From the NCBI RefSeq assembly GCF_964194025.1, contig NC_134475.1, forward strand, positions 8,184,001 to 8,248,000: a stretch of 64,000 bases of DNA, written 5' to 3'. The translations under genes were made by a program, and so were the position numbers. The stretch's first letter is position 1, and each line of letters starts with the position of its first letter. The notes beneath the pieces were generated by a model. It did no database searches. It saw nothing but the letters and a program-made list of their open reading frames with translations, and was not told where the DNA came from. Positions 961-36,604 of the stretch are shown here, in pieces. Source of the stretch: Convolutriloba macropyga. Taxonomy: Eukaryota.

Positions 961-1063
961 ACGGGTTAGCTTTTGTGGAAAAATAGATACCAGGTATGAG
1001 GTTTTTTTGTAGCTGTCTGAGTCTATCTGGATAAGTACCTGATGTCTCCGTACATTTGGTAAC

Positions 1064-3022: not shown

Positions 3023-3122
3023 TATTCTAGTAGAGTTGAGTAGTCGACTCCATGTTGAAAATTTTTCAACCTCAATGACCGGCGTCTGAAGATGTGTCGC
3101 TTGTGTAGCGCATATGTGGGGA

Positions 3123-5222: not shown

Positions 5223-5247
5223 GACATCTGCTGTTATAACTGAGTGT

Positions 5248-7409: not shown

Positions 7410-8280
7410 ATTGATTGTTTTAGAAGACTTTTCTTATTTTACAAAGTTTATACTGCACTGTTACTGCACTAAGTTTCCTTGTAACAGCCCTATTCTATCT
7501 TTTGTTTTGTTAAAACCTATTATTTAAATGAGGCTGTTGCTTACTGTGCTTAGATATTGTTTTTTGCTTATTGTTTGTTTTCTATGTTTTTGCTTGTCGC
7601 TATCACTAATCAGTGATGTTTGATACAGATGTGATGCTAATCAGAAGTTGCATAGAGTTAAACATTTCCACTAATCAGTGAAATTATTACAAACTTAGAT
7701 AAATGTGATGTTTACTTCGTTGCTTTTTTGTTTTTCGAGCGCGACTGAAAAAACTCTAACCTGTGGTGGCTAACTTTTGGTTATTGTGTGTGTCTACTGA
7801 CACTGGTGGGGGGATATCCTCACGTTCCTATAAACCTTAAGGTAGCAAGGGCATACCAGGCCCTGCAACTAATCCTAAGTTAATGTGTGTTAGTGGTGCT
7901 TTCAAAATTCACCTAGAGGAGGACCTACTCCTTTCAGAACTAATGCGGAAAGATACTATATTGATCCAACGATAACTAGACGCCTATTAAAATCCAACTT
8001 TTGAAATGAAGACTTTCAATTCTGCAAGTAAGGCTAGCCCATCTGTCGTGACTAGGCGTCACACGCAAGCATCCTTCTCAGGAGAACTCTCAAATCAGTC
8101 TTCACTTCTAGAGCCACATTAAAAATCAGTTGGATCTTTTGTGATTGTGATCTTTTTGATTAAAACATGTGAAGTTATCAAACCAGAGTTTAAATGTTCA
8201 AAGTGTCAAATGTCTAAGTTCCCCCCTATAAAATCAAAAATTCCCCAGTCTGAGTCGAGCAAGTTTCAAAGGTCCCTTTT

Positions 8281-8298
8281 AGACCCTATGATACGCCA
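8281..8298 (-). other. Putative primer-binding site (TGGCGTATCATAGGGTCT)
   Basis: TGG-starting 18-mer 4 nt inside the 5' LTR on the - strand; cognate tRNA not identified. Confidence 0.5.
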
Positions 8299-8302
8299 GA
8301 AA

Positions 8303-8663
8303 TGTTTATGCTCTTCGGGCTAAGTCTTGCATACCAAGACAATTTTTTATTAATATTTGTATTTCTGAAGGTCGCAAACATGGTAGCAAATCAACCTCTA
8401 TAAATACATCATAATTCGCGCCATTGGCACACAAGTTGTGGTTAAAAACGGGAAATCCCTTACTATAAATAATATTGAAAGTGAAGTTGAACCACTTCTG
8501 ACTTCTTCAATAAAATCAACTTAAATAAATAGCTTCAATGGAAATAGGTTGGGGGAATGGAAATCAGGAAATGAATGGGTTTTGGAGGACGAAAGTGTAG
8601 GTGGGAGGAGGAAAATGAAGGTGTTGGGGGAGATAAAATATAAAGGAACTTGGTTCCTTTACA
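8303..8663 (-). repeat. 5' LTR of BEL/Pao element
   Basis: tgtttatgctcttcggg...ttggttcctttaca, a direct repeat of 1064-1424. Confidence 0.93.
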
Positions 8664-8668
8664 GTATC

Positions 8669-8940
8669 TAAGTAAATTTCGACAGTTTCGAAAGCTGTTT
8701 TGAACTGAAGTAAGAACTTCTTTTTTGCCTTACCTCTTATTGTTTCACAGTAATTTCGAGGTTTGATAATTTTATTGAGGTTCTTCTGGGACCAACCAGG
8801 TGTCTGTCGAATTAAAACGATTTTGAAGTAGTCACAATTTACCATTACGTTTGCGACGTCCATGCGTTTGTGAATATCTAACCGGCTTCTTATATTGCAT
8901 AATAGCAGATGAACACAATTTTCAAGTTGATTTGCAAAGT
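8669..8940 (-). pseudogene. Older LINE apurinic-like endonuclease fragment interrupted by the BEL insertion (continues at ~960-1058)
   Basis: 'LLLCNIRSRLDIHKRMDVANVMVNCDY' resembles the ORF2 start of the CR1 in this window ('ILQL..SLLNIDRRPKLANAVEIGDY'). The frame continues across the TSD to 'GIYFSTKANPY', similar to 'LFYNPTKGSEY'. Confidence 0.5.
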
Positions 8941-9394
8941 CATTATCAGATTGGATCAATACTTTTGACTCTATCTCAATTTTTTCTCTTTCTTTTCGAA
9001 CAGTTTCAAGTCACCTGATTTGATTTCTTAATGTTCCAGCTCCGATCCGTTATCGGAGTTTTGCCAGAACGTCTTGTTTTGCTTTTGCGTCTTCGCCATT
9101 TGATTAGTTGCTCACGATCAATACTTTATCGTACCTATTGGGCTCGCTGACAGCAAAAAATAGCTTTTTTAAAAAAAATGTTTCCTATGATAGATTCCAA
9201 TTCGTTTTATGTCAGCTACCACACGTTCTGTTGAAAATCTCTTGGCTTGCATTCCTCCATACCTCTCATTTGGGTGCTCTCAGTTTTGGGGTCAGCAATA
9301 AAGTTTGCCTCTATGCTTGGAGGATAAAGCTATTGTGTAACTTATTTGTATATTAAAAAGTTTTATGTAGCTATTCGGTCCCGAGTCGAGATGT

Positions 9395-9555
9395 AAGCGC
9401 TGTTTCAGCGCATTATTTTGTAAGAAATGCTTATTTTATGTAACAAGTTAGCTGAATTCGCTGAAATGCGCTAAAATGAGCTCAAATGCGCTGATTTTTC
9501 AAATTTTTCAGCGCAAAAATCTTATATAAAATTACGCTGAATTGCGCTGAAACTT
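9395..9555. repeat. Cluster of short gcgctgaa/ttcagcgc motifs in both orientations (probable non-autonomous DNA transposon remnant)
   Basis: About 8 copies of (g)cgctga(a)-like words within 160 bp. Confidence 0.35.
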
Positions 9556-12166
9556 TTTCTTTACTGAAAATGCAAGTCATTTTCAGTAAAGAACCCCCCA
9601 CCACTCTTGGTACTCAAATAACTTGTGGCAATTTTGTGAAGACCGCGGCAACAAATTGCGAGTGTTCAGTGTTTCTGTATAATTCTGTTCAGGACAATAC
9701 ACAGTCCATTGAGTTCTTTTTTAAACATTTTTTTTACAATTAACAAATATTACTGACAAAAGAATGTAAATGGGGTTATTTTTCGTGATATTTTGCTTTT
9801 TAATTTTGAGGCACTATTCAATGACCTTGGAAAATCATTGATCACAATTATGACAAAAGTGTAGCGGCGTTCCTTTGATGTTTAAAAATTTCCATTTCGT
9901 GGCAATTAAAATTCTTCTACTATCCGAAAAACCGCTTTTATGGTCTTTCCCAAAATAGCATGCCAGTACCCCTTTCAAATTTTTGAGCTTAACGTTTTTA
10001 TTCAGCGAACTTTTTTTCAACAGTATTTTTTATTTATCTGCTCTCTTAAAGAACAGTTTAATATCATTTGGGTCATTTGGTCCCATTCTAGCATTGCTGA
10101 GATTTTAATTTAATTATTATTAATTTTTCTTCAAAATGACTCAGCTCATAATTTTCAATTCCAAGCAATTTTCTTTCTATCATTTTCAATTTTATTTGGT
10201 TTTGAATACAAAAAGTTTTTTAGAGGTCGTTCGTGGCGTATTGTACGGCTGGGTAGCAATGCTTGGACTTTGTTTTATAATTTCTTTTATTGTCTAATAA
10301 TGTTCATAAGAATTCAACGAGCTCAAAATGAAAGAAAGTAATCAATTGCTGTTCAAACCAAAAATGACGTCATAGGAAAAAAGAGAATCACGTTTTGAGT
10401 TCAACAGAAACATTGAAGCAACGAAAAAATGGGACTTAATTGCGTAAGGTATAGCTAGTTAGAACACAGATTAAACAAATTGTCTTTTGCTCCGAATCGA
10501 AAAAGTACTAACGAATTACGCTTTTAGCCAGATCAGAATCAGAATAGGCCATTTGGAATAAACTAATGTGAAAATTTGTTTATATTAACTCAGTTTTTCT
10601 CTGTGTACATTGAAAAATGCCTACAAAACGTTCTTCTGTGAGTAAAATTTGTAGCACGTTTTAAAAAATTAAAGCTCACTCCAACGAAAGTCTCAGCAAA
10701 CCATTTTTTTATAACCTAGGCCAAGAATTGGGAAGCTTTTTAGGTCACTTCATGACTATCAGTAGAAAAAACCTGAAAAAACTTTCATCAGTTGAAAACA
10801 ACGAGAGTTGATTACTTATGAGTAGTCGAGAGATGGCTTCAGCTTCAGATGACAGCAGCATTGACTGTCCATCACACGAAATCTATGAATTCATTTTAGA
10901 ACAACATCTTGTTGAAGAAATTCCTGTTTTAAAATCTTGATGAAAAGGTTAATAACCAATCTATGTGAATAGAGATTATGGTTGGTTTCAAAAATTCAAA
11001 GGTAAAAATAAAGACAAAATTAAAAATAACAAAAGAGAACATGACAAATTAATGAAGACGAAATTGTTTACAATATACAAAATGATTACATCACTAAACA
11101 AAATTGCTTTACCTTTCAGAAAAAAGGAGTTTAAAAAGAAAGCACATATAGAGACAGTTTTGCTCCATGTGTTAAAAATGTCAAACGTTGTGTTGTGGTT
11201 GCAATTGTATGAAATTTGCACAAATTTTGCATCTTTTGATGTGGTCTTTGTATCGCTTATTGATACTTTTCTCCCAAAAAAATTATTTTTGACTGGTCTA
11301 GCCAGAGAATCTCTTTTTAAATAGTATTTAGTGATCAGGATATCAATATCAGATGTTCTTCGGGTTCTCTGCTTGGAGAAATTTTTGTGAGTGCAATGCT
11401 GATTTATCAATCTGTCATCCAGAAGACAGATTCAACAATCTGTTTTCTGAAGGTTTTATTGATGACAAACTACATTTGTAGCTCTGTTTTCATCTGCATT
11501 TAATAGCAAGTTCAGTTAGACTTCGAGTTTTGGCTGAATTGATTCGTTGACTGAAGTGATTCGTTTTGTCAAAAATTAAAAAAAATTATTGGCTTTTGGA
11601 ATTGTTCAAAGAAAAGGGTAGTTGTGACATTTCTTGGAAAAGTTTGCGTTAGTTCTTCACTTGGATACGTTGATTTCAAATATTGAAATATTTCGAGAAC
11701 CAAATCAAAAAAGAAATATCCAGAAAACTCGAAACTGACATGAAAACAGAAATGAAAAAAAAATCATTGAAAAGCTTAGAAAAACTCAAAATCGTACTTG
11801 ACGCAAAATTACTCAAACAATTTTATCAACGGTTCCAAACTCATCTTTCTAACCGTAGATAACCTACCTACTAGAAACATCAGACTGGTTGCAGTAGGGG
11901 CTGCACAACCGGAAAGCAATTCTAGCCAAGTACTATATTTTATTTAACGTCTCCTTTTTTTCTTTATTCGATTTTTCTTTATCGATCTTTTATTCCTTTA
12001 TAATTGTACTTGGTTTTAGGAGGAGAGTGCGTGCATGACAGTTACCGTAAGTGAAAATCATTCCCTTTTCTGGTTTGCCGTGCTCCTGTTTATTCGCAAG
12101 GGGACTGAATTTCAATTCCTTCTGTGATCCGATTTTCTTCTCCTTTTTTGAAGATGTGTTTTTAAA

Positions 12167-12193
12167 CATATATATATATATATATATATATAT
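12167..12193. repeat. (TA)n microsatellite
   Basis: Directly visible. Confidence 0.95.
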
Positions 12194-15100
12194 AAACACA
12201 TCTATCTGATTCATTCGCAAATATTAGGCAACTTTCATCAATGAATAACCGAGAAATTTTTTTTCGGACATGAGAATATTCCTTGGTTTCAAAATAAGAG
12301 ATTTGTAAAGTTTCCTCCCAAGAGTTTGTTGAGAGTCCATGTCAGTTTGTCCGCCAGATAGTTGTTTCAGTAAAACGTTGGTCCAAAAACGTGTGCCACA
12401 GATTTTTTGTCCACCTGTTGGTTGACGAAATTCAAAATTTTTTTAAATCGAGGAAACTAAAAACTCTTTTTTGCAGCTGTTAAATTATGCCGCAAAAAGA
12501 AGTCCCAATTTTTTGTACTAACCTATTGAATGAAAATTTTTTAATACAGTTTTTGTTACCGCGATTGACTTTCAAGGTAATAGGACAGCAACACAGTTAT
12601 GGGGCTCATTTTTTGGGAAAATCTGTGTTTCCTCCATTGTTTAATTTTAATTTACAAGGTCAGCCTATATAAATAGCTTGTTTGTTGATAATCAACTTGT
12701 TTTTTTTTAGGTTCTGAATTGAACCGTTAGATACTCTTACGCTTTCGCACGACATACGTAGCGGGATTTTTCAGATTTTTAAATTAATGCAGTGTACCAC
12801 TTCGTTACCTTTCTTCCTCTCTGAGCTTTCAACATTCCTGCAATTTAATGCATAACTAAAACCAAAAACTGTTACATCTTTGTCACTTCTCTTAAAACTC
12901 AGTTGACAAAAGAGATTGAGGGAGTTTAACTAAAGTTAAATTACGCGTCCAATCAAAGCGAGATTAGATTTTGTTTTCTTGTCTTCCCAAACTTTATTTT
13001 TTTTGTACGATTTACAAGTTATTTTTGTTTTTACAATTGTTACGGATTTAAAACAACTTAAATCATTGGAAGCCAATGCTTGATGAAGTCATAAAGGACG
13101 TTAGTTCATTTCTCTTCGTTGATTGTTTTTTTGGCGTTTATTGGAACAGTAGAGTTTAGCAAACCTAAGTCTCCATTTGTAAATTGTGATTTACATGGCC
13201 AAAAAATGTAACCCGAACATTGTCATTTGGAAACTTAACAGCATCACTCGTGAAAAAATCATTCCATTAGCAGGTTCATCAGAACTATCTATCAATTTCG
13301 TATTGTATTAGGTAAAAATAAACGGTGCATAAGAAAACAACTCTACAGTGGAAGAGTTCATCAATTAATCATTCATTTTTAAAACGCTGTTTCTTTTTTT
13401 GCTAAAGTTTTATCAGTTAAATGCTTGTTGGACATTTATCTGTAGCAATTATAATCATTTTGCTGATCGCACAAGTATGTTGTGACCTGTACAAATGCAG
13501 ATTTTAAAATCAAAAATAGATACATCTCTCTCATTTCTGATAAAACTGAGCTAACAAAGGAGGCTAGTCAAAGTTGCTTTAAATAGTCTGCAAAATTTAT
13601 GGAGCAGAAACAAGTATTTTTTGTCAGATTTAAGTTGTTTTTAATGTTGTTGAGGAATTAAAACAAATTGTTCCATTTGAAGCCAAACATTTAACGCTTG
13701 ATGGAGCCGAAAATGTAAATGAGCATCTTTGTGGTTCTACGTATTTCCATTCAACTATAACAGTTTATGTATCCTAACAATGTCAATTGGTATCTTAGGG
13801 GAAACTAATTAAAACACTCATCAAATTAACAACTTGTTCAAATCCAAAAAAATGACCAAGACCGATATTTGACAAATAACAATAACAAGTTGTCAGTAAG
13901 AAAACTCGACGGAAATCAGTGACTATCATGTAAATTGAATTTAGTTTATCTTACTTTTTGATTTTCAGAAGTTTTTTTCGTATCAAGTAGGCATGGATCA
14001 AATATGCACAGATATACATGGATCCAATACATGAATTCACTCATAGTTTTGCAGTTGCTTACTCCCAATCCCCATTAACATATATTATTTCTGGCAGAAA
14101 TGTCCATAAATTTTTCAATGCTTTTTAGGAAAAATTAAACGATGCTTTGGGAAACATACAGAGTAATAGTTTATCAGTCAGTGATCCGATTTCAAAACAT
14201 TGTTCATTTTATTTGCCTAACAATTCATCAGTCTGCTGCTGGTTGGACAATTATATGAAGCTATTTATATGAAGCAATAAAACTTGCCAATCTAAAATTT
14301 GAGTTTTGCAATACGTAATCAAACAGGTAATAAAAATACAATATACCCTTATTTTGGGAGACGCCAGTTATCACCCGCTATAAAACTTGATTGTTCAAAC
14401 TTTTTATTGAATTTGAAACAAACAGACAGAAAAAAGAGCATTTGTTACAATTTTTCAGCTTTAGCTTTGGAATGGTTAACTTTTGTGGCCATCGTGCTGA
14501 GAAATGAATCCCTCATTTTCTTGCATATTGCAAAGAACAAGTTCTTTAAAGAACTAACTGCAATTTCTGCAACAGCATTTTTGTTTTTTCTTCTATTAGA
14601 CTCAATTTTAATTTTCATGTTCTTGCAAAACATTCAAAAATGACCACCAAATTTCAATATCCGATCAACCAATAACTTTTCCACCGAGGTTGAAAGCTTT
14701 TAAAGCTTCGTTTGCATTCTTTGATTTCACTGACCACTAATTAATGGAGAAGAAACGTTAGCACATGCTATTGATTGATTTTTTCTTTTTTAATATGATG
14801 GCCATACATCGTCAAAAACCCGCGTGTTTGAACGAATATAAATACAGCGGATAAATTATCAAAATGGTGCATATTTATGCGAAATTTTGCCAAAAGTTAG
14901 AAAGCATTATTGTTTGTTGATATTCACAATTTTGTTTGTTATTTTAGATTTTGAATTGAAATACAAGCTACTCTTGAATTTTCACACAACATACGTTGCC
15001 CTAAGTTGAGAAAATTTCGGCTTTTAAACATAGGAAACCGTCAGCATCATCGTTTTTCTGACCAAAAATGTCAAAATTTCTTCTGAGTTTGTCGGCGGTT

Positions 15101-15399
15101 TTGTCATTTTTGTTCGGTAATTAACATAAGAAAGATTCGGTATTTTCGTTTTTAAACGTAAGAAAACTCGGTACCATTGTTTTTAAACGTAGGAGATATT
15201 TGGTAACATTGTTTTCAAACTTGAGTAAGATTCACTATCTTTTAGAGAAACACCAAAATTCTTAACTCCTGCTCTGAAAAGCAGATTAACCCAGCGTATC
15301 GAACGACGAAAATGATTGTCACTACAAGAAAGATCGACACTACTTGCAAAATACAAGAAAGTATGACAAAATTTAGTGAATGCGAATTGTTCAACAGAC

Positions 15400-16010
15400 T
15401 TCTCATCAATGTTCAACAAGTATGTTACATTTAAGAATTCAAAATTAACCAAAAAATTTATACTTATTCATTTATTGAATTTCTGTGACGTCTTTTAGTG
15501 ACATTGATTCAAGTACGAAATAGTGTTTGATTGGATTCTTTTTATCTTTGGAAACTACTGCTTTTTTGCCGTTGCGTAAGCCCTACACAAGTTTTTTAAA
15601 CAATTGAGAATTTAGCGCTAAATCTGCAGAGAACTAGAAGTCAAAATGATCAAAATGACGTGCGAGTTCCGTATTTGAGTTCCTCGCTGTTCATATTTTA
15701 GCTTTTTGTAGCGTTGTTTAAAAACAACATTTTCCTGGATAAAAAGAATTTTTCCCGAAAAAAATGGACGTGAAAATTTGATCATAAAACATAAAAGATA
15801 TTCTTTTGATATTTGATCACCTGTTGATGCATTTTGTAAAAGAAAGTTGTTATAAAAATTCGGTCTCGCAAGAATAAAATCAGACTTTTTTGCAACTTGT
15901 AGGTATGATTTTTGTTAGTTTGAAATAAATCAATTGCTGGTTTACATTGAGTAAAGGCTCGTTATCGCGATCTCAAAACAAACTCATTTCACAATTTCTG
16001 AGATATTTTT
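15400..16010 (-). pseudogene. Polinton-like major capsid (hexon/PY-like) relic, paralogue A (other copies ~19230-19810, ~23900-24500)
   Basis: Collinear motifs across frameshifts: 'ILARPNFY', 'FIQENVVF/NNA', 'ARNSNT', 'LCRAYATAK', 'KHYFVLESMSLKDVTE', 'NFEFLNVTYLL'. These match, from my recollection, Maverick MCP motifs RARPNFY, FIQENIFNNA, AMNTN, CRLYVTTMK, HYVLVFDLTSMQDATE. Confidence 0.72.
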
Positions 16011-16200
16011 CAGTTTAAAACCCTTAACCAGACAAACTTTATTCCTTGCTTGTTTTTGAGTCAGAAACTTGTTGAAAAATAAAATTTAATTCCGGGAAGC
16101 AAAAGCGATGTCTATATGTGTTTTTTATTTCCTTATTGTTGTACTTCGCTGTTGAATAAGAACGCTTGCATCAAGTTGTTAACATGAGTTCGACAATGTC

Positions 16201-16504
16201 NNNNNNNNNNNNNNNNNNNNNNNNNNNNNNNNNNNNNNNNNNNNNNNNNNNNNNNNNNNNNNNNNNNNNNNNNNNNNNNNNNNNNNNNNNNNNNNNNNNN
16301 NNNNNNNNNNNNNNNNNNNNNNNNNNNNNNNNNNNNNNNNNNNNNNNNNNNNNNNNNNNNNNNNNNNNNNNNNNNNNNNNNNNNNNNNNNNNNNNNNNNN
16401 NNNNNNNNNNNNNNNNNNNNNNNNNNNNNNNNNNNNNNNNNNNNNNNNNNNNNNNNNNNNNNNNNNNNNNNNNNNNNNNNNNNNNNNNNNNNNNNNNNNN
16501 NNNN
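16201..16504. other. Assembly gap (other gaps: 19027-19226, 20125-20269, 28722-28984)
   Basis: Runs of N. Confidence 1.
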
Positions 16505-16559
16505 ATTCAAACTCAAATATTAAATAAATTTCAACAAGGAAGTACTGAGAATTTTTGTC

Positions 16560-17030
16560 CCGACATTAGAATTTTCCTTGGCTTCAAAACATGAGTTTTG
16601 TGGAACGTTTCCCACCATGATTTTTTTGACAGTTGATGTCAAAAGTTCCTATCATTTAGCCTTCATTGTAGCTGAAAAAACTCTCATGTTTCGGCGAGTC
16701 TGATTAACTTTTAGTGTTTTTTATTGAATAATGCAACGTTTACAGGTTCTCCACCAGCTAGTTGTTTGAGTAAAACTTTCTTCCAAACCGCTTGCCACAG
16801 ATTTTTTCGCATCCACTTGTTGATGGAAATCAAAATCTCGAAAATTGAAATCTCGATTTCTTGCAGCTGGTAATATTTGCCGCAAATAGAGCTGTTGAGC
16901 TCCCAATTGTTTCTGTCTGAGTTCCTGTCAGCAATAATATAGCAAAACTTAACGATAAAAAATGAAGATGCAAATGAATAGTTCATAATACAACTTTTGT
17001 TACCACATTTGACTTTCAAGGTAATAATTC
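16560..17030 (-). pseudogene. Polinton-like major capsid relic, paralogue B (other copies ~12270-12580, ~20320-20830, ~24880-25350)
   Basis: 'YILPDKNSDF', 'NLWQAVWKKVLLKQLAGGEPV' (cf. RGGQPIV), 'NMRVFSATMKA' (cf. NCRLYVTTMKA), 'IGTFDINCQ' (cf. LVFDLTSMQ). Confidence 0.55.
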
Positions 17031-17379
17031 AACAAAACAGATGCTGGGCTCACTTTTTACTCTGTTTTAAAATTCGTTGCCTTCTTCTTTTACTTTCTGA
17101 GTTTATACTAATTTATAGTAACCTGCAGTAATGTTTAAACAATACTGGGAAAACCAACATTACTACAATTAAATGCACAATTGAAATCAAAAACTGTTAC
17201 ACTGTTGTGATTTCTCATAAAACTGAGCTAACAAAAGACATTGAGGGAGTTAAAACTAAACTTAAAATAATTGTGCAATCAAAGAGAGATTAGGTTACTG
17301 ATATTTTTTTAGTTTTCGTTAAATTTACTTCAATTAGTCTGCTGTTTAGTTGAAGAAGAAACAAGCAATTTTTGTAAGA

Positions 17380-19026
17380 TTTTACTGCTTACTTTTGGTT
17401 CTTAAAGTTGATGCAGAAATAAGTAGCAATTGTTTTATTCGAATTCAACGTTTAATGCTTGATGAAATAAAAAATGATATTAGTTCGTTTTTTATCATTG
17501 ACAGTTTTTTCTGGAGCTTATTGGAACCGTAGAGTTTAGCAAATCTATGTCTCCCGTGTTTAATTTTGATTTACAAATCCAAAAATGTAACAAGGCATCT
17601 TTGTACCCTCTACGGTTTTTTCCAACAAAATCACTGTTTGTCATTGACATGTGTACCTGAACAATTTCGTTTGGAAAATTAACCGAAGGTGGACCAGAAT
17701 CACTCGTAAAAAACTTCATTGCATTAGCAGGTTCGTCTTATCCAGCAGAAGTTCGCCACATCCAAAGATCACCACAGAACAAATAACAGGTAACGGTTTC
17801 TTATTACGAAAACTCAAAAACGTTTATTTTTGCCTAATCCATTTTTGATTTCTTTAACTAAAATTTTATCAGCTTAATGCTTGTCGATCTTTTAAATATA
17901 ACAATTTTAACCATTTTGCCGGTTTCACAAGCATTTTGTGTCTTGTTCAATCGCAGACTTAAAATCGAAATCAGCTATATCTCTTTCACTTCTCAAAAAA
18001 CTGAGCTAACAAAAGAGATTGAGGGAGTTCAACTAAAGCTGAGTTATGTGTCCAATCGAGGAGAGATTAGATTTTAAATAGTTTTTTCTCTTCGTTATAT
18101 TTACTTCAATTTATTTGCAGTTTTGTTGAAACAGATGCAAGTAATTTTTGTCATATTTCATTAACTGTTTTTGGTTCCTGAAGTTGATTCAGAATTAATA
18201 GCACTTGTTTCATTCGAAGACAAACATTTAATGCGAGATGAAGTCGAAATTGACATTAATCACTTTTTTTATCGTACATAGTTTCTTTTAGTTTTTACTG
18301 GAACAGTAGAGTTTAGCAAGCCTATGTCTCCATTGCTTTAGTTTCATTTACAAGACCAAAAAAAAGTAGCCTTGTACTTTCTTCATTTTTTTCCAACAAA
18401 ATCACTATATATCATTAAAATGTGCTCCTGAACAATGTCTTTTGGAAAAATAACAGAAGGTGGACCAGTACCACTCATTGAACACCTCATTCCATTAGCA
18501 GGTTTCAAATCCAGCAGAAGTTCCTCGCATCCAAATATCAGCAGAGAACGGATAACAGGTATAGATTTCTTACTAAGAAAATTCAAAGGCACTCAAAATC
18601 TTCTGTTTATTTCTTTTCCTAATCTGTTGTTTATTTCTTTGCCTAAATTTTTTATCAGTTTAATGCTTGTCGGCCGTTTAAAAGTAACAATTTTAACCAT
18701 TTTAACGGCTTCACATGTATTTTGTGACTTGTTCAATTGCAGACTTAAAAACGAAATCAACTACATCTCTCTCACTTCTGATTAAAATTAGCCAAAAAAG
18801 AGGCTCATTATATTTGTTTTAATGTTGAAAAGGACTTAAGCTGTTTTGTCAGATTTTAGTAGTGATTTTTTGATCCCAATAATGTTGAAGAATTGAAACA
18901 AATGGTTCAATTTGAAGCTAATCATTGAATGATTGATTAAGTCAAAATAGACATTACTCCGCTTTTTCCATTGACAGTTTTTTGGCAGTTATGTGAACTG
19001 TTCAGTTTAGCAAATCTAATCTTTCT
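17380..19026 (-). pseudogene. Tandem Polinton-like minor capsid (penton) relics, ~780-bp spacing
   Basis: ORFs 17495-17719 and 18383-18592: 'LLIFG...MSGTGPPSVIFPKDIVQEHILMIYSDFV' and 'YKDALLHFWICKSKLNTGDI'. Compare the recalled penton motif G.GPH.PEF..DIVR.HSLMIYTD.I...KAPLLR.FPF.SKLK.GDI. Confidence 0.72.
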
Positions 19027-21149
19027 NNNNNNNNNNNNNNNNNNNNNNNNNNNNNNNNNNNNNNNNNNNNNNNNNNNNNNNNNNNNNNNNNNNNNNNNNN
19101 NNNNNNNNNNNNNNNNNNNNNNNNNNNNNNNNNNNNNNNNNNNNNNNNNNNNNNNNNNNNNNNNNNNNNNNNNNNNNNNNNNNNNNNNNNNNNNNNNNNN
19201 NNNNNNNNNNNNNNNNNNNNNNNNNNATTGTTCAACAAGTATTTTACATTTATGAATTCAAAATTAACCAAAAAATTTATACTTATTCATTTATTGAATT
19301 TCTCTGACGTCTTTTAGTGACATTGAATTGAAGTACAAAATAGTGTTTTATTGGATTTTTTTCATTTTAGTAAACTACTAATGTTTTGCTGTTGCGTAAG
19401 CCCTACTATAGTCTTTTAAACAATTCAGAATTTAGCGCTATATCTGCAGAGAACTAGAAGTCAAAGTGCTTAAAATGACTTGTGAGGTCCGTATTTGAGT
19501 TCCTCGCTATTGATATTTTAGCTTTGTTGTAGTGTTGTTAAAAAACAACATTTTCCTGGATAAAATGAATTTTTCCCGAAAAAAATGAACGTGAAAATTT
19601 GATCAAAAAACATAAAAGATATTCTTTTGATATTTGATCGCCTGTTGAAGCATCTTGTAAAAAAAAAGTTGTTATAAAAATTCGGTCTCGCAAGAATAAT
19701 TTCTTCTTCAACCTGTAGCAATGATTTTTGTTAGTTTGAAATAAATCAATTGCTGGTTTACATTGAGTAAAAGCTCGTTATCGCGATCTGAAAACAAACT
19801 CATTTCAAAATTTCTGAGATATTTTTCAATTTATAACCCTTAACCAGACAAACTTTATTCCTTGCTTGTTTTTGAGGCAAAAACTTGTTGAATACTAAAA
19901 ATTTAATTCCGGGAAGCACAAGCGATGTCTATATGTGTTTTTTATTTCCTTATTATTGTACTTCGCTGTTGAATAAAAAAGCTTGCATCAAGTTGTTAAC
20001 ATGAGTTCCACAATGTCAGTTATCATATGTGGAAATCAAACCCTTTTCAGTTTTGCCGTGCTCCTGTTTGTTTGCAACGGGACTGAAATTTTTTCCAAGT
20101 GTGATCCGATTTTATTTTCTAAATNNNNNNNNNNNNNNNNNNNNNNNNNNNNNNNNNNNNNNNNNNNNNNNNNNNNNNNNNNNNNNNNNNNNNNNNNNNN
20201 NNNNNNNNNNNNNNNNNNNNNNNNNNNNNNNNNNNNNNNNNNNNNNNNNNNNNNNNNNNNNNNNNNNNNCAAACTCAAATATAAAATAAATTTCAACAAG
20301 GAAGTACTGAGAATTTTTTTCCCGACATTAGAATTTTACTTGGCTTCAAAACATGAGTTTTGTGGAACGTTTCCCACCATGAGTTTTTTGACAGTTGAGC
20401 CTTCATTGTTCCTATCGTTTAGCCTTCATTGTAGCTGAAAAAACTCTCATGTTTCTATGGGTTTGATTAATTTTTAGTGTTTTTATTGAATAATGCAACG
20501 TTTACAAGTTCTCCATCAGCTAGTTGGTTTAGTAAAACCTTCTTCCAAACTGCTTGCCACAGATTGTTTGCATCCACTTGTTGATGGAAATCAAAATCTC
20601 GAAAATTGAAATCTCGATTTTTTGCAGCTGGGTATATTTGCCGCAAATGGAGCTGTTGAGCTCCCTATTGTTTCTACTAACCTATTAAAGACTATGGAAT
20701 AACCACAACAAAAATCAGAGTTCTTGTCAGGAAGAATATAGTAAAACTTAACAATCAAAAATGAAGATGCAAATGAATAGTTCATAATACAACTTTTGTT
20801 ATCACATTTGACCTTTCAAGGTAATAATTCAACAAAACAGATATTGGGCTCACATTTAACTCTGTTTTAAAATTCGTTGCCTTCTTTTCTGATTTTATAC
20901 TAATTTATAGTAGCCTGCAGTAATGTTTAAAAAATTTTGGGAAAACCAACATTCCTACAATTCAATGCACAATTGAAATCAAAAACTGTTACACTGTTGT
21001 GATTTCTCATAAAACTGAGCTAACAAAAGACATTGACGGAGTTAAACTAAACTTAAATTAATTGTGCAATCAAAGAGAGATTAGGTTTCTGATATTTTTT
21101 TGGTTTTCGTTAAATTTACTTCAATTAGTCTTCTGTTTAGTTGAAGAAG

Positions 21150-22900
21150 AAACAAGAAATTGTTGTAAGATTTTACTGCTTATTGTTGGTTCCTAAATTT
21201 GATGCAGAATTAATAGCAATTGTTTAATTCGAATTCAACTTTTAATGCTTGATGAAGCAAAAAATGATATTAGTTCGTTTTTTATCATTGACAGTTTTTT
21301 CTGGCGCTTATTGGAACCGTAGAGTTTAGCAAATCTATGTCTCCCGTGTTTAATTTTGATTTACAACTCCAAAAATAGAACAAAGCATCCTTGTATCTTC
21401 TACAGTTTTTTCCAACAAAATCACTATTTGTCATTGACATGTGTACCTGAACAATGTCATTTGGAAAATTAACAGAAGGTGGACCAGAATCACTCGTAAA
21501 AATCTCATTGCATTAGCGGGTTCGTCTCATCCAGCAGAAGTTCGTCACATCCAAAGATCAGCACAGAACAAATTACAGGTAACGGTTTCTTATTTCGAAA
21601 ACTCAAAAACGTTTATTTTTTGCCTAATCCGTTTTTGATTTCTTTAACTAAAGTTTTATCAGCTTAATGCTTGTCGATTGTTTAAATATAACAATTTTAA
21701 CCATTTTGCGGGTTTCACAAGCATGTTGTGACTTGTTCAATTGCAGACTTAAAATCCAAATCAGCTATATCTCTTTCACTTCTCAAAAAACTGAGCTAAC
21801 AAAAGAGTTTGAGGGAGTTCAACTAAAGCTGAGTTATGTGTCCAATCAAAAAGAGATTAGATTTTAAATAGTTTCTTCTGTTCGTTATATTTACTTCAAT
21901 TGATTTGCAGTTTTGTTGAAACGGATGCAAGCAATTTTTGTCATATTTCACTAACAGTTTTTGATTCTTAAAGTTGATTCAGAATTAAGAGCACTTGTTT
22001 CATTCAAAGACAAACATTTATTGCGTGATGAAGTCGAAATTGACATTAGTCACTTTTTTTATCGTACATAGTTTCTTTTAGTTTTTACTGGAAGAGTAGA
22101 GTTTAGCAAACCTATGTCTCCATTCTTTAAGTTTCATTTACAAGACCAAAAAAAGCAGCCTTGTACTTTCTTCATTTTTTTTTCAACAAAGTCACTATAT
22201 ATCATTAAAATGTGCTCCCGAACAATGTTTCTTGGAAAATTAACAGAAGGTGGACCAGTACCACTCATTGAAAACCTCATTCCACTAGCAGGTTTCAAAT
22301 CCAGCAGAAGTTCCTCACATCCAAAGATCAGCAGAGAACTAATAACGGGTATAGATTTCTTACTAAGAAAATTCAAAGGCACTCAAAATCTTCTGTTTAT
22401 TTCTTTTCCTAATCTGTTGTTTATTTCTTTGCCTAAATTTTTATCAGTTTAATGCTTGTCGGCCGTTTAAAAGTAACAATTTTAACCATTTTAACGGCTT
22501 CACATGTATGTTGTGACTTGTTCAATTGCAGACTTAAAATCGAAATCAACTACATCTCTCTCACTTCTGATAAAAATGAGCCAAAAAAGAGGCTCATTAT
22601 ATTTGTTCTAAACTGTCTGCATATTTGTTGAAAAGGACTTAAACTGTTTTTTTCAGATTTAAGTGGTGATTTTTTGATCCCAATAATGTTGAAGAAATTA
22701 AACAAATGGTTCAGTTTGAAGCTAATCATTGAATGATTGAATAAGTCATAATAGACATTACTCCGCTTTTTCCATTGACAGTTTTTTTGGCAGTTATGTG
22801 AACTGTTGAGTTCAGCAAATCTAATCTTTCTTTAATGTTAATTTTTTCACCTGGCTAAAAATGTAAAAGAGTTTTTTTGTGGTTTCTACAATTTTTCATT
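21150..22900 (-). pseudogene. Second set of tandem penton relics (further copy ~13050-13560; 'ITDIVELM' penton-like fragments at ~16170, ~20000, ~24660)
   Basis: ORF 22134-22382 'MSGTGPPSVNFPRNIVREHILMIYSDFVEK'; DNA collinear with 17380-19026. Confidence 0.72.
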
Positions 22901-22939
22901 CAACAAACTCAATATGTAACCCAACAAGTAACAAAAGTA

Positions 22940-23480
22940 CAATATATCCTTATTTTGGGAGACGCCTGTTATCAACCGTTATAAAATTTGATTGTTCAAA
23001 ACTTTTACTGAAAGTGAAACAAGTAAACTGAAAATGAGCTTTCGTTACCACTTTTCAGCATTAGCTTTGAAACGATAAACTTTTGTGGCCATCGTGGTGA
23101 AAAATGGACTCCTCATTTTCTTGCAATTTTTTTGGTTTTTTTTCTAGTAGATTCGATTTCAATATTCATATTCTTGCATAAAAGTCAAAATTGACCACCA
23201 AACTTCAATAATCGATCCAAAAACTTTTCCACTAATGTTGACAGCTTTTAAAGTTGGGCTAGCTTTCTTTGATTTGACAGATTGAGCACTATCTAATGAA
23301 GAAGAAACGTGAGCACATGCTATTCAATGATTTTCTCGTTTTTAAAGTGAACGTGACACTTCGTTCAAAACCGCTTTTTTGGAACAGCAGATGTCAGTGA
23401 ACTGCGTAGCAGCTGCGGATAAATGATCAAATTGGTGGCATAATTATTCAAATTTTTAGAAGGCAATTTTGTTTGTTGAC
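22940..23480 (-). pseudogene. Polinton-like major capsid relic, paralogue C, N-terminal half (other copies ~14340-14900, ~25700-26050)
   Basis: Motifs read from the sister copies: 'FSTKCHVNLKKGKNHS' (ORF 25768-25998; cf. FSNCEVYLNNE..YS) and 'KFGGHF..KNMKIKIESNRRK' (~14590-14660; cf. KLGVDFF..PNMKIRLRLIRAR). Confidence 0.45.
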
Positions 23481-26400
23481 ATTTAACTTGTTCTTTTTTA
23501 GATTCTGAGTTTTACCATAAGCTACTTTTCATTTTTTACCCGACATACGTGGCCCCTAGTTCATATACTATGGGCTTAAAAAATGATAAATCGTCGGTAT
23601 TGTTGTTTTTGTTCGGTATATAGCATTCTTAAGATTCGGTGTTGTTGTTTTTAAACGTAAGAAAAGCTAGGTACCGTTGTTTTTAATCGTAAGAGATATT
23701 TGGTATCATTGTTTTTAAACTTGAGTAAGATTCACTTTTAGAGAAACACCAAAATTTTTTAACGCCTCTTCTGAAAAGCAGACTAACCCAGCGTATCGAA
23801 CAACGAAAACGATTGTCACTACAAGAAAGATCGAAACAACTTGCAAACTACAAGAAAGTATGACAAAACATAGTGAATGCGAATTGATCAACAGACTTCT
23901 CATCAATGCTCAACAAGCATGTTACATTTATGAATTCAAAATTAGCTAAGAAATTTATACTTATTCATTTATTGAATTTCTCTGACGTCTTTTAGTGACA
24001 TTGAATTCAAGTACAAAATAGTGTTTGATTGGATTTTTTTTCATCTTTGGAAATTACTGCTTTTTTGCGTTTTTGCTGTTGCGTGAGCCCTACAATAGTT
24101 ATTGAAACAATTGAGATTACAGCGCTAAATCTGCAGAGAACTAGAAGTCAAAATGCTCAAAATGTCCTTTGAGTTCCGTATTTGAGTTCCTCGCTATTGA
24201 TATTTTAGTTTTTTTTGTAGCGCTGTTAGAAAACATTTTCCTGGATAAAATGAAATTTTCCTGAAAATAATTAGAGGTGAAAATTTTATCATAAAATTAT
24301 AAAGGATATTCCTTTGATATCTGATCACCTGTTGATGCATTTTGTATAAGAAACTTGTAAAAATTTGGTCTCGCAAAAATAAAGGCGGACTTTTTTTTCA
24401 ATTTGCAAGTCGGAATTTGTAATTTGAAACAAATCAGTTGCCAGTTTACAGTGAGTAAATGCATGTTATCGCATTCGAAAAGCAGACTCATTTTGTGATC
24501 TTTGTCGGTTTATAACCCTCAAACAGACACCATTTATTCATTGTTTATTTTGAGGAAAAAAATTTGTTGAAAAATTAAATTTATTTCAGGAAGCACAAAC
24601 GAGGTCTATATATGTTTTTTTACTCAGTTTTTGCTTGAGTGTTTATGCATCAAGTTGTTAACATGAATTAGACAGTGACAGATATCATGTGTCAAAATCA
24701 TGCTTTTTTCTGGTTTGCCGTGCTCCTATTTATTTGCAAGGGGACTAAAATTTATATCCATCTGTGATCCGACTTTATTTTCTATGTGATTATTGCTTTT
24801 TTGAAGAAAAAAAACTTCTATTTGAATCAAACTCAAATAAAAAATAGTTGTCAACAACAAAGTACCGAAAAACTTTTTCCCGACATTCATTGGCTTCAAA
24901 GCATGAGTTTTGTGGAACGTTTCCCATCATGAGTTTGTTGAGAATCCATTCAAAAGTTCCTATTGTTTGCATTCATTGCTTAAAATCTCTCATGGTTCCA
25001 CGAACTTGGTAAATTTTTGGAGGAAAATAATGCAACTTTTATAGGTTCTCCAACAGCTAGTTGTTTCAATTACACTTTTTTTCCAAAACCGCTTGCCACT
25101 GTTTGCATCCACTGTTGATGGAAATCAAAACCTCGATAATTGAAATCTCGATTTTTGCAGCTGGTAATATTTGCCGCAAATGGAATTGTTGAGCTCCCAA
25201 TTGTTCCTACTAACCTATTTAGGCCCCTGGAATAACCACAAAAAATCGTTGAATTCTTGTCAGCAATAATATAGTAAATCTTAACAGTCAAAAAAGAAGA
25301 TGCTAATGAAGAGTTCATTAATAGAAATTTGTTACCGCTTTTCACTTTCAAGATAAAAATTCAACAATACAGTTGTTGGGATCACTTTTTTACCCTCTTT
25401 TAATACTTCGTTGCCTTCGTTTTTTTACTGTGTGAGCTTTAACTAATTTATAGTAGAGTCCAGTAATGTTTAAAATTATTGGGAAAGCCACTATTCCTGC
25501 AATTGAATGCATAACTAAAGTCAGAAACTGTTGCATTTTTGTCACATCTCATATAACTGAGCTGACAAAAGGATCAATACACTATTGTGGACCTCGTGGT
25601 GAGAAATAGATCCGTCGTTTTCCTTGCGCACAGCAAAGGACAAGTTTTTTTAAAAACCTGGCCGCAATTTTTGCTACAGTATTTTGTTTTCTTTTCTGGA
25701 GGGCTCAATTTCAATTTTCATATTCTTGAAGAATAGTCAAAATTGACCACAAAACTCCATTAACCGATCAACCAAAAAATTTTTCACTGACGTTGAAAGC
25801 TTTTAAAGCATGGTCAGTTTTAATTGATTTGACAGACTGCGCAGTAACTAATGAAGAAGAAACAAGGACACATGTTATTGAATGATTTTTTCCCTTTTTA
25901 AGGTTAACGTGACACTTTGTTGAAAATTGCGTCTTTGAAACAGCAGATATCAGTGAATTGCATAGTAACTGCGGATAAATTATAAAATGGTGGCACATTT
26001 ATGAGAACTCTTGAGAACAGTTTGCAGGCAATTTCGTTTGTTGACCTTCAACCTGTTCTTTTTTTTAGATTCTGAATTGTACCATAATCTACTCTTCATT
26101 TTTTCATCTGCTATGCGTAGCCCCTAGTTGAGCAAATCGTGACTTTTATATTTGGAAATTGTCGGTATCTTCCTTTTTTTCTAATCAGAAACGTCGAAAA
26201 TTCTTTTGATTTTTTGTCATTTTATTTCGGTATCTAAAATAAGAAAGATTTATTATTGTCGTTTTTAATCGTAAAAAATATTTTTTATCTTCGTTTTTAA
26301 ACTTAAGTGACATTTGGCATAGTTTCGAGAAACATCAGGATATTTTAAACTCCGGGTCAGAAAAGCAGATTAGTGCAGCGGACCCAAGAATGAAAACGAT

Positions 26401-29004
26401 TGGCACTGGGTGATTTGAGACGCAACCAACCGTCGAAAACGTTGCTTGTATACAGCAAGAAAAATATGTCAAAATTTAGTGAATGCGAATTAAGGAACAG
26501 AGAGACTTCCTATCAATGCTCAACAATTCTGTTACATCTTTGATTTCACAAATAACCACGAAATATATACTAATTCAATTATCTTTGCTAATGAGATAAG
26601 AAAAAAGAATTTTTAATGATATTGAACATTCTTTCGGATTTTTTCGTAGGATGTGAAAAAATGGTATCAAAATGTTTGACTCATTTATACACAGAAAAAA
26701 AAATTTTGGCTTCCAGTTCTTTGTTTACGCTATTATTCAAGTAATTTACGTCGGTATGCGGCATTTGCTTTCTCACACTATCAAAGTGCCAAGATTGAAC
26801 CTAAACCAAAAATGCCCTGACTGTCATTAGAAAGTGGTTTGGAATAGCAAGTCTTTTGAAGTCGAGAAATGAGAGAACTCTTATCACATAAAACGTCAAA
26901 ATACAAGTTGGATCAATTCAGAAAAATTGGGACTTTGTTTGAAAAAACCTCCATTGCTAAATGAAAGCAACTGATAACACAACTAGAAAACAAAAGATCT
27001 TTTGAATTATTTGTAAATGACATTATTTGCTCACTTAAAGAGCCCCCCAACAATTTGCTCTAAATAGGAAATATCTTACATAAAGTTTTGCGATCACAAC
27101 AGAAAAATGGAATGAAGAATTTGAGCTGGCCTTCTAGAGTATGGCAATCTGCCTTGAGGTACCAAACATCAGGAGACAGGTACAATTCTGAAAAGCCGTA
27201 GCTGCGCACCCATCCGGAACAAAAAAACCAGAAGGTTGAGTATTATCTATAGCCTCTTTTTTTTCTATAATGAAATAGCAATGCTATGACGAAACCCCAA
27301 GAATTATGGAATTAACATAACGAATAATTAATATCCGGATGTCAGGAATTGTAATTTAGTCAAATGGAAAAAAAATTTGGTGATACGAAGACGAAGGCAG
27401 AAACAACATTGGAAATCACATCGAAAATTATGCTATACCGGAGGCCAATACAAACGCTTTGTTTTCAATATAGAGGCCCAATTAGCCATCGAACTAAACG
27501 AATAACTGCAAAAAATAGAGCCACTAACAGTGATATACAGAGCCATGCATTGAAAACGTGCTCATCATTCTTATGTTCAAGTTTTGATCTGCATATAAAA
27601 TCTCACTTTGTACAAAAAAACAACTTTTAGTGGATGGAACTTCAATTGTATTTTGCAGTTTTGTAGACATATTACCGGGTAGAGGGCAGATTATCCAAAA
27701 AAGATTCATCGGTGGGTCCGCCAATGAACCAAAGTTGTGGCACCTCAAGGGCAAGGTGCCACCAAAGCTCAGGACTGTTGAAAGCCAACTAGCAAAGCCA
27801 GAAACTGTTATCAAAAGATTAGTCAGCACAAGACATGCTGCTTTTTTTGTAATTCGAAAATTACGTTTTATTGTATTAAGAAAATGAAATTTTCAGAAAC
27901 AACACCGGAGTGATCAACGAAAACTTTTGAAAGCCCTATAACATAACCGATAGAATTAAATACATAACGAAAAACGAAATTTCAGAAGTCTTTCTTTCAA
28001 CAAAAGCAAGAACTTAAGGAAACTCAGATTATTGTTTTATTTTCTAATACAATTGAGGTCTTTTTATTTGTATATAGAATACCTTCACGTACGTAATGAT
28101 GCATTATAATGATGCTATCTATTGGCAAAACTTCCAGGTAAACTTATATATATATAAAGTAGTTCTATTACAACCAAAAGTCATTTTGCATGATTGTCCA
28201 AAACAATGCCACGACTAATTATAACCATCAAAGAGCACGTTTCCAGATTTTAACTATTTCTCTGTCCTGATTCTCAAACCGTGTATTTGGAGAGAATAAA
28301 ATGCGTTCCAAACATAGACAGTGAACAAAAAAGTAGTGATAAAGATTCAATGGTTGTTCACTGTTTGGATCAAATCTGTATGGTAGCAGATCTCTGGAGG
28401 GTTTTGATGAGGACGGATGCACTCGTGATCTACAGGAGAAGATTAATGGATAGAAGGTGGCCTTTTGATCTTCGATTGTCCTTTGACTGAATTTCAGCTT
28501 CTTCGTGGACCTGTGTTATCTACAGGAATCCGTATTACGATTGGGCAACTCTAAGCATATGGATTAAACATCGAAAAATGAATCTTCCTCTGAATCTTGT
28601 TTTGGTAGTAACCATTAGCTTTGATATGTCGTCGTCAGTAGTGGTACGTTTAATTGCAAAGGTTTCATTGACCAGGTTGGCAACGAATGAATAAATATAT
28701 CATTTCTCATATAATATTGTGNNNNNNNNNNNNNNNNNNNNNNNNNNNNNNNNNNNNNNNNNNNNNNNNNNNNNNNNNNNNNNNNNNNNNNNNNNNNNNN
28801 NNNNNNNNNNNNNNNNNNNNNNNNNNNNNNNNNNNNNNNNNNNNNNNNNNNNNNNNNNNNNNNNNNNNNNNNNNNNNNNNNNNNNNNNNNNNNNNNNNNN
28901 NNNNNNNNNNNNNNNNNNNNNNNNNNNNNNNNNNNNNNNNNNNNNNNNNNNNNNNNNNNNNNNNNNNNNNNNNNNNNNNNNNNNAATTTACTCCAAGAAA
29001 GAAC

Positions 29005-29243
29005 TTTGGTTTTGCTTACATTTGCGGTTGTAAGTTGGAACTTCTTGGAGCTTCTTGATCTCCCTTGAACGCTGATGAACTCCTCTTCTGATAAAGTCAA
29101 TTCAGTCTGTTTGCAAGATTTTGTTGGTTTTGCTTACATTTGCGGTTGTAAGTTGGAACTTCTTGGAGCTTCTTGATCTCCATTGAACGCTGATGAACTC
29201 CTCTTCTGATAAAGTCAATTCAGTCTGTTTGCAAGATTTTGTT
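29005..29243. repeat. ~119-bp near-perfect tandem duplication next to a gap
   Basis: ttggttttgcttacatttgcgg...gtttgcaagattttg occurs twice, nearly identical. Confidence 0.93.
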
Positions 29244-29302
29244 GATTAATAATTGTAAACCAGTTGGGTTTTGTCGTAATAAAGTATGAAATATAACAAA
29301 GT

Positions 29303-29620
29303 TTGATTTCGACCAATTAATACACTGAAATTGTTAGGTTCTGGCAATTAAAACAATGAAACAAATTGATTTCGGTCTTATTAATCTACCTAAATTGTAA
29401 GATTATGGCAATAACAAACTATGAAACAATCGGACTTCGGCCTATTAATACGCTGAATTTGGAAGATTCTGGCACTATTATAGTAAGAAGCAAGTTGATT
29501 TCGGCCAATTAATACAATGAGTTTACAAGATTCTGGCAATAATACAATATGAAACAAATCGATTTCGGCCAATTAATACACTGAATTGATAAGATTTGGC
29601 GATATTGAACAATGAAGCCA
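29303..29620. repeat. Degenerate ~64-bp tandem repeat, 5 copies
   Basis: Units of gatttcggccaattaatacactgaa...gattctggcaat...atgaaacaa. Confidence 0.8.
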
Positions 29621-30329
29621 TTTGACTCAGCAATACACAAGTGTTTCATGGAATGAATCAATCTTTGTTTGGATAACAGAGTGACTTTGTTAGGCAGTGA
29701 ATTATGTGGACTAATGCCAGCAACTTGAGACAGCCCGCGTTTTCTTGTTTATAATCAATTAAAGCTGGTTTTGTAAAAAAACACATTGTTGTTGTCTAAA
29801 TGAACTAAGAAAATCAATTAAAGCAGAAAGTAGGAAAAACAGATTCATGAATACATCATTTTGATTAATTAGGATAAAAAAATGAAACATGTTTAAATGT
29901 TTTCATTATAATTAAAGTACGAGGAAGTTTACGCCCTTAATTTTTTGGTTTTACATGATCAAGTTTCTCTCTCATTCACAAGTGAAATTCACACCTCTTA
30001 AAGAAATTTTATAAATCACTTGAGATTTCTGTTTTTTATCGAAACTCGACTTCAGCGAAGGCAAGCAGGCTTTCATTTTTCTAGTCTTTAAAATTAAATT
30101 TAACCCGGATATCTTTAGTAGTTTTGTTTCAATGACAAGACAAAGGAAAGACAAAAGCATCACGCTAAGGAAGCCAACCGGGTTTTTACGGACGGTGTTA
30201 CCAGTAGTTCCGGTGAACTTCCTTGAGGAAGTGCAGATTTCTAATCCAATAATGCCGTTCCATAGGATGTAAGTTGTCCAACTAAAACGTGAAAAAAGGA
30301 GAACGGAAGATGTTTTGAAAAATTTGTGA

Positions 30330-32145: not shown

Positions 32146-32667
32146 ACCTCTGTCGATTAGATTTGCCGTCATTTTAACACAACGATAACGGAGACCATCA
32201 AAAACTTGATTCACCGGTTGTGCAGCAATTAGCGACCGCTGTGGTTTTTCATAGGATTTTAATTGGCGAACCATTGACAACTGCAGCGACATTGAGAAAT
32301 TGATCATCGTTAATGCATTGTACATAAAGCAACGAAAACCAAAAACAGGGACAAATATCGGGGCAGTGAGCGGACACTCAATTATCAGTCTAGCATGTGA
32401 GTTGACGTGCTCGAAAACGTTCAAGAACATTATATTCAAAAGCGCAAAATCACGCTATTGTCGGAAAATTTCCCCTAAAAAATTTGCAACATATTTTTAA
32501 CGTAGAAAATCAATAATTTTTGAGGGTTCTAAAAATTTGAGTTGAACAAATTGACCGGCTCAAAGACCTCAAAAACTAATCTTTGTAATTGTTGTTGTTG
32601 TTGTTGTTGTTGTTGGAGATTAGCAGCGGGTTTGCTGCAGGGCTGATTTATGCCCTGTCGTCAGTTG

Positions 32668-36458: not shown

Positions 36459-36604
36459 TAATCCTATGCACAGTACCTTGCACTATGTTTTATGTTGCAA
36501 TGGGGCACAACTACGAAAATTTAGAGGTGTCGGTAGGCTTACGGTACCATTTGCATCATTTTTTAATTTCCTTGCTAACATATATGTCAAGAAAAGCCAG
36601 TTGA
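36459..36604 (-). mobile_element. Short Penelope RT C-terminal fragment, inverted relative to 32010-32140
   Basis: 'QLAFLDIYVS', 'CKWYRKPTDTS', 'LNFRSCAPLQHK', 'VQGTVHRI'; DNA ctggcttttcttgacat...tgttagcaaggaaa matches 32011-32048. Confidence 0.8.

Follow-up and report, generated by a model that had tools for sequence, protein, structure and literature searches.

A tandem array of broken genes from a putative Maverick capsid module in the Convolutriloba macropyga genome

Here we explore a tandem array of broken genes in a 64,000-nucleotide stretch of the Convolutriloba macropyga genome (hereafter the window; G000:C8:8184001-8248000 of a 1.18-Gb genome, unit coordinates being window positions), which a sequence-only reading had described as a macrosatellite built from endogenous Polinton or Maverick capsid genes. 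We think it probable that the array derives from one half of an old Maverick (integrase-minor capsid-PW-major capsid-protease), dead before it was duplicated in place, and that two of its four apparent units, B and C, are haplotypes of one another. The name PW is assigned by position only.

Self-BLAST and a DNA tile map of the window place same-strand, head-to-tail repeats at about 12,030-26,640. The self-BLAST offsets are close to 3.8 and 4.6 kb, with one of 778 bp nested within, and the DNA is 30-34% G+C. Repetition on one strand at 12030..26580, as first proposed, is borne out, and so is the lack of a long open reading frame (ORF): no stop-to-stop frame free of N in 12,030-26,580 exceeds 126 aa. 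About 3.5 units of 4-4.7 kb had been estimated; the repetition stands and the lengths do not, since the four apparent units, read along the genes on the minus strand as D, C, B and A, measure 2.7, 4.7, 3.8 and about 4.3 kb. Identity is 76-85% among A, C and D, 88-92% near the unit junction, and 90-95% between B and C. Because the units are few and unequal, are 76-85% alike apart from B/C and the junction region, and sit at a single locus, the array appears to be a local duplication of at most four, likely about three, units rather than a macrosatellite. Its features, in the direction of the genes, are as follows; they include parts of a miniature inverted-repeat transposable element (MITE)-like sequence, a label of ours given without a superfamily.

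26,702-23,974, minus strand: unit D, 2.7 kb.
26117..26702, no strand given: the MITE-like element in its longest copy, which marks the relic's upstream limit.
25617..26086, minus strand: unit D integrase remnant, reference residues 31-196 (score 109), beyond which most of the minor capsid gene is deleted.
23974..25571, minus strand: unit D major capsid gene 24,947-23,994, PW-position gene 25,318-24,985 and the 3' end of the minor capsid region.
23,973-19,296, minus strand: unit C, 4.7 kb.
23554..23973, no strand given: unit C part of the MITE-like element, with the junction to the unit D major capsid gene at 23,973.
22928..23528, minus strand: unit C integrase remnant, reference residues 28-236 (score 102 against a null of 39; 6 stops, 3 frameshifts).
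19296..22915, minus strand: unit C major capsid gene 20,400-19,296 and PW-position gene 20,809-20,424.
22,591-20,961, minus strand: two unit C sub-repeats of ~780 bp, plus a partial third.
19,295-15,477, minus strand: unit B, 3.8 kb, including a run of 200 N.
19229..19295, no strand given: junction fragment of the MITE-like element, 96.7% identical to the piece at 15,410-15,470.
19027..19226, no strand given: 200-N run between units B and C.
15477..19026, minus strand: unit B major capsid gene (to about residue 390), PW-position gene and two ~780-bp sub-repeats (frameshift-aware and profile scores, tiles).
15,476 to about 11,170, minus strand: unit A, about 4.3 kb.
14999..15476, no strand given: part of the MITE-like ~900-bp dispersed element, cut at the unit junction (DNA matches).
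14200..14998, minus strand: unit A integrase remnant (tblastn E about 1e-14; score 177; reference ORF Pfam rve E 4e-12).
12400..14200, minus strand: unit A minor capsid remnants with nested duplication, and PW-position remnant (DNA tiles).
14,170-13,758, minus strand: unit A minor capsid positions 5-172 (score 66.5 against a null of 48).
13,491-13,426, minus strand: weak second integrase tail of unit A (frameshift-aware alignment).
12019..12400, minus strand: N-terminal part of the unit A major capsid gene, the middle of the gene missing (tblastn E 2e-6; profile positions 31-125, score 61).
11816..11925, minus strand: weak candidate for the C-terminal end of the major capsid gene (score 47, inside the control range of 41-50), placed only by its position before the protease.
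11176..11400, minus strand: single protease remnant of adenovirus-like C5 type after the last unit (tblastn E 1e-10; score 131 against a null of 39; 1 stop, 2 frameshifts).

The capsid genes were recognised through motifs and open-frame relatives. A motif search of the window found ARPNFY, FIQENV, CRAYAT-like, HYFVL and SLKDV[TR]E three times each on the minus strand, collinear, and never on the plus strand, while GP...FP has four minus-strand occurrences and a single one on the plus strand; by this count on both strands the collinear motifs noticed earlier are real. Single-frame window pieces gave no Pfam match (0 of 8) and a homologue search with one broken capsid piece returned none among 37 candidates. 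One broken window piece compared with the genome had 150 scored matches out of 423 candidates, 146 of them outside the window, many falling in an open 280-aa frame. Window pieces match a 450-aa ORF (tblastn E 1e-9; scores of 125, 111 and 87 against controls of 41-50) and the 280-aa ORF (tblastn E 5e-10), so that the proposed tblastn comparison of Maverick capsid and penton proteins with the window is positive for both. The 450-aa protein contains ARPNFY, FIQENV, CRAYVT and HYVLV; the 280-aa protein contains GP...FP. The broken copy in unit D matches the major capsid at E 1e-9 (tblastn) with a score of 111, 4 stops and 14 frameshifts.

Since neither relative has a Pfam match, and the 450-aa protein no PDB sequence match either, their capsid identity rests on folds, which were predicted for open-frame proteins ~30-50% identical to the window pieces and not for the window sequence, and are thus one step indirect. 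The 450-aa model, built with 86 relatives (mean predicted local distance difference test score, pLDDT, 64.9), aligns with the PBCV-1 capsid protein at Z 16.1 (root-mean-square deviation 4.4, 294 aligned) and with other double-jelly-roll capsids of faustovirus (Z 15.3), Sputnik (12.9) and mavirus (12.0); all 14 of its 14 top rows are viral capsid or scaffold proteins. The 280-aa model (88 relatives, mean pLDDT 65.5) has mavirus penton chains as its best Foldseek match, at E 6e-6 but with a template modelling (TM) score of only 0.34, followed by Sputnik and adenovirus capsid-vertex chains. By these models, which supply the fold comparison suggested beforehand, the array carries predicted pseudogenes of a double-jelly-roll major capsid protein and a single-jelly-roll minor capsid protein (penton). 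The initial Polinton/Maverick capsid assignment, followed through folds of relatives, tblastn and motifs, was right.

The array holds more than capsid genes. An open-frame integrase of the genome matches the window at 14,681-14,241 (tblastn E about 1e-14), a protease reference at 11,403-11,173 (E 1e-10; outside 12030..26580 and not repeated), and the 149-aa PW-position reference at E 2.5e-6. When frameshifts were allowed in the alignment, integrase scored 177 in unit A, 102 in C and 109 in D (null 39); the 149-aa gene was recovered from D, C and B, and the protease from a single place, 11,400-11,176. Plain hmmsearch on single frames gave weak results. The order is integrase-minor capsid-PW-major capsid-protease on one strand, and in unit B the ~780-bp sub-repeats consist of integrase tail plus the middle and end of the minor capsid gene. 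The sequence-only reading had seen neither integrase nor protease in the unit and suggested that only structural genes were amplified; this is corrected by integrase in three units, by the PW-position gene likewise inside the unit, and by the protease remnant that follows the last one. It was correct that the protein-primed polymerase (pPolB) and the ATPase are missing: at the sensitivity used, neither turned up anywhere in the window, array included, or in the 10 kb that flank it on either side. The polymerase, ATPase and other upstream ORFs of related elements have no match in the window outside the array or in those flanks, and score at null level in 26,500-33,000 and 7,400-11,500. Weak matches of the ATPase (scores 64 and 56) and of a 145-aa ORF (45-58) were rejected, the minor capsid explaining those stretches better. 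DNA downstream of the relic matches only another repeat, and upstream DNA at 26,650-28,700 matches unrelated repeats, not Maverick genes; window self-BLAST showed no inverted pair flanking the relic, although an old single end could escape it. With integrase, PW and protease present and the polymerase, ATPase and upstream ORFs at null level, the repeat would be half an element and not a selected set of structural genes, and the relic does not appear to be an intact member of the Mavericks or Polintons.

When unit C was searched as DNA, only one part of ~400 bp matched outside the locus (55 matches; 40 of 809 candidates scored), and this part belongs to the dispersed ~900-bp MITE-like element, whose terminal inverted repeats begin CCCTAGTTGAGAA. 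The element also has internal inverted repeats, and its copies, 70-85% alike, are found elsewhere at L004, L006-L010 and L071-L074. In units A, C and D an end of the element lies, with like flanks, at 14,999, 23,554 and 26,117, just before integrase residue 28-31; because end and flanks match, this would be a single insertion into the integrase 5' end, older than the duplications. At the other side the matches end at the same base in A, B and C (15,476, 19,295 and 23,973), where the cut element joins the major capsid gene near its residue 390, while in unit D it runs on to about 26,702. Given this one cut and fusion, the repeated unit appears to have started inside a host transposon and ended inside a capsid gene. 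An origin of the array by recombination between two separate copies of the element was rejected, there being one insertion site only and a junction inside the element.

One integrase position carries a stop in all three of units A, C and D. Differences among these units fall on codon positions one, two and three as 77/76/102 over 399 codon pairs (third share 0.40), whereas each of 11 out of 11 control integrase relatives, 78-80% identical to the reference, shows about 33/33/130 (third share about 0.65); divergence between the units thus looks near-neutral and far from the control. Third positions nevertheless lie slightly over 1/3 (p 0.015, with pairs that are not independent), which speaks against full neutrality; codon alignment favours conserved codons, and the small excess may come from the alignment filter or from base composition. 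The shared insertion, the shared stop and the near-neutral divergence make it likely that amplification followed the death of the element. Breaks are abundant, with dozens of stops and frameshifts and up to 14 frameshifts per gene copy. Some may be assembly errors or alleles; the 16 one-base differences between reads and assembly (12 of the 16 listed) are too few for the dozens counted. Open frames under purifying selection are not seen: with no N-free frame above 126 aa, many frameshifts and a third share of 0.40 against about 0.65, the sequence gives no sign of domestication. The predicted function of the array is none.

The number of units depends on B and C. Their alignment (15,410-19,026 against 19,229-22,831) reaches both edges of the 200-N run, which is also N in the genome assembly, unlike other N runs of the array, and is likely a scaffold gap. 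In read run X4, where depth is summed contig depth in bins chosen by us and no copy number (four runs, all from one study), unit B has 28.9 (3 bins) and unit C 29.8 (5 bins), against a reference of 63.2 from 8 bins of unit D and both integrase regions that contain neither MITE nor N and have a single mapping place; depth climbs again at the end of the B/C overlap. Runs X1-X3, with little or no cover over unit B, were given no weight. A gap between copies and haploid depth on each both figure among the signs of false duplication given in PMC9516828. Since B and C lie on either side of the 200-N run, each at roughly half the reference depth, we judge it likely that they are two haplotypes of one unit, which leaves about three partial units.

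Several observations weigh against this. The 200-N run is possibly something other than a scaffold gap, and five bins at 11,000-13,704 are also at half depth in X4 (mean 30.4). The difference of 5-10% between B and C is high for alleles, the only clear allele measured, at 14,367-14,975, differing by 15 substitutions and 5 gaps in 606 bases (about 3%). The depth measure itself counts here too, being contig depth from author-chosen bins and from runs of one study. The divergence and the half depth outside B and C favour the leading alternative, a tandem array of four genuine units in which a recent duplication produced B and C while the unit B integrase and MITE are merely concealed by the N run. 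At another locus (L090) this module is duplicated at 96% identity without a gap, which fits as well. We regard it as rather unlikely, because B and C each have about half the X4 depth of unit D and both integrase regions, the depth step coincides with the end of their overlap, and a run of a round 200 N separates them; under either account the array would be dead and local.

That the whole array is an assembly artefact, the outcome named in advance as fatal to the proposal, can be rejected: A, C and D are 76-85% alike and are covered by read-derived contigs, which span 12,208-15,133, 22,512-24,208 (across the junction) and 25,780-27,200, the junction at 23,973 being bridged by X2 record 13. 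This contig support comes from one study that is possibly the assembly's own source. An artefact is thus likely for one unit and not for the array as a whole. Unit C resembles A in its MITE (91.6%, against 76.4% to D) and D in PW plus capsid (84.6%, against 79.4% to A), a mosaic to be expected if the middle unit arose through unequal crossing-over. The integrase identities (A-C 81.0, C-D 82.7) are ambiguous and count against it, fitting a simple chimera less than cleanly.

Under the haplotype reading, a history can be proposed whose order of steps is our reconstruction from gene identity and order, the shared MITE site, the fixed junction, and the stops and frameshifts. A Maverick would have inserted and decayed, a MITE would have inserted into it, and a ~780-bp piece would have been duplicated. 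A tandem duplication with one end in the MITE and the other in the capsid gene would then have created the junction, which unequal crossing-over would have copied once more. Deletions would have trimmed single units, and the polymerase/ATPase half would have been lost. Finally, the assembler would have kept both haplotypes of the middle unit, with a gap between them.

Elsewhere in the genome, relatives of the array have open frames. Three copies of a young ~19.4-kb family (L045-L050, L075-L077), 98% alike, carry open frames and ~960-bp terminal inverted repeats. The ends read AGTAGT/ACTACT, and at least one copy is flanked by a 6-bp target duplication. Their order is ATPase, 145-aa ORF, integrase, 280-aa, 149-aa, 450-aa, protease. 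Pfam identifies the ATPase (Pox_A32, E 1.5e-4) and the integrase (rve, E 4e-12); the protease match (Peptidase_C5, E 0.0019) is weak and under the cut-off. A 1467-aa ORF is presumably the polymerase, as judged from two polymerase-like motifs; neither Pfam nor PDB names a polymerase there, and several accessory ORFs have no Pfam family. The array shares five genes in identical order with this family, at 28-52% amino-acid identity in tblastn pieces, but the family has open frames in copies 98% alike and an ATPase upstream of the integrase on the same strand. As there is no DNA match between the two, the array appears to belong to a different, older Maverick lineage. The genome-wide search for intact sources that had been suggested found related open-frame Mavericks; no close intact parent was found in the genome, and the breaks were placed against a relative ~40% identical. 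A second abundant Maverick-like family (L015-L029) has a capsid that matches the Pfam domain DJR-like_dom, PF21738 (126 scored of 1792 candidates, mostly open frames). It was considered as the array's relative and rejected, the ORFs of 15 fetched loci having no tblastn match to the window.

Five places with two capsid matches less than 5 kb apart were picked by hand and by eye, and so are a chosen sample and not a rate. All five (L089, L090, L091, L092, L093) belong to Maverick copies, drawn from two families, in which 1.4-4.2 kb is duplicated head to tail, free of N, at 96-99.9% identity (four at 99% or more) and always touching a capsid gene; one is ATPase-integrase-penton-PW-capsid twice. 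Internal duplications of Maverick copies therefore seem to recur in the assembly, either as real events or as assembly errors. One may ask whether Mavericks, while replicating or integrating, duplicate their own capsid module often enough to be of consequence, a virion-gene accordion of which the array would be a fossil or, alternatively, a host-kept anti-Maverick RNA locus; we consider this improbable. Still less probable is the specific account in which the module was amplified inside an active element for capsid gene dosage, then inserted and decayed: the five picked places and the slight third-position excess agree with it, whereas every copy was truncated from the start, the unit running from within a host MITE lodged in the integrase to a point within the capsid gene, and divergence between units is near-neutral; for the large unit the shared MITE largely refutes it. 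Equally remote is an array kept by the host as an anti-Maverick small-RNA source or structural satellite, for although a genome heavily invaded by Mavericks offers a defence locus its target, the units are few and not homogenised (76-85%), none of the 40 candidates scored, out of 809, is a close DNA match outside this locus, and the young family, at about 40% amino-acid identity, is too distant for base-paired silencing.

Other features of the window were also noted. At 1061-8663, on the minus strand, lies a long terminal repeat (LTR) retrotransposon, presumably of BEL/Pao type, with 364-bp direct repeats (1061-1424 and 8300-8663, 93%) around long gag/pol-like frames, and at 9380-9560 the end of another small dispersed element with inverted repeats (at least 40 scored matches elsewhere). 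Three remnants (26807-27259, 31674-32127 and 36460-36606) match a 179-aa ORF of L088 that is rich in cysteine and likely represents the 5' ORF of a long interspersed nuclear element (LINE). Plus-strand exons at 41358-49870, probably one host gene, show cysteine patterns that we take to be RING- and B-box-like, and at 54992-58100 there are minus-strand broken non-LTR retrotransposon-like frames, with related frames in L086.

Macrosatellites such as D4Z4 consist of many near-identical, equal-length multi-kb units. The array resembles them in its multi-kb head-to-tail units at one locus and differs in that its three or four units are unequal, 76-95% alike and without sign of homogenisation. In the title- and abstract-level literature covered, from which subscription literature is largely absent, there is no report of a Maverick capsid-gene satellite; a true viral capsid-gene satellite or a regulated virion-gene amplification would be new, but the evidence here speaks against either. 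For yeasts, a domesticated tandem array of viral origin is reported (10.64898/2026.05.24.726934); ours is unlike it in giving no sign of domestication. With heterotype false duplication, as outlined in PMC9516828, it appears to share adjacent near-copies (B and C), a gap between them and haploid depth on each (one run, contig depth); this would explain units B and C only, and two of its signs were looked at. The practical warning is that repeats split by a round run of N may be two haplotypes.

In Polintons, PMC4028283 places the PX (penton) gene one gene away from PY, the double-jelly-roll major capsid gene. The array's relatives match PY and PX in predicted fold and the array in penton-capsid spacing, its own copies being pseudogenes and the folds those of relatives. 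The Maverick/Polinton module of integrase, minor capsid, PW, major capsid and protease is given in PMC8097293, and compared with the animal elements described there the array has the same module order on one strand; unlike them it is the module only, broken and repeated, with no polymerase, ATPase or terminal repeat found. It worked once as a Maverick module and is ordinary genomic debris now, of value as a record of an apparently older Maverick lineage with no close copy found in the assembly.

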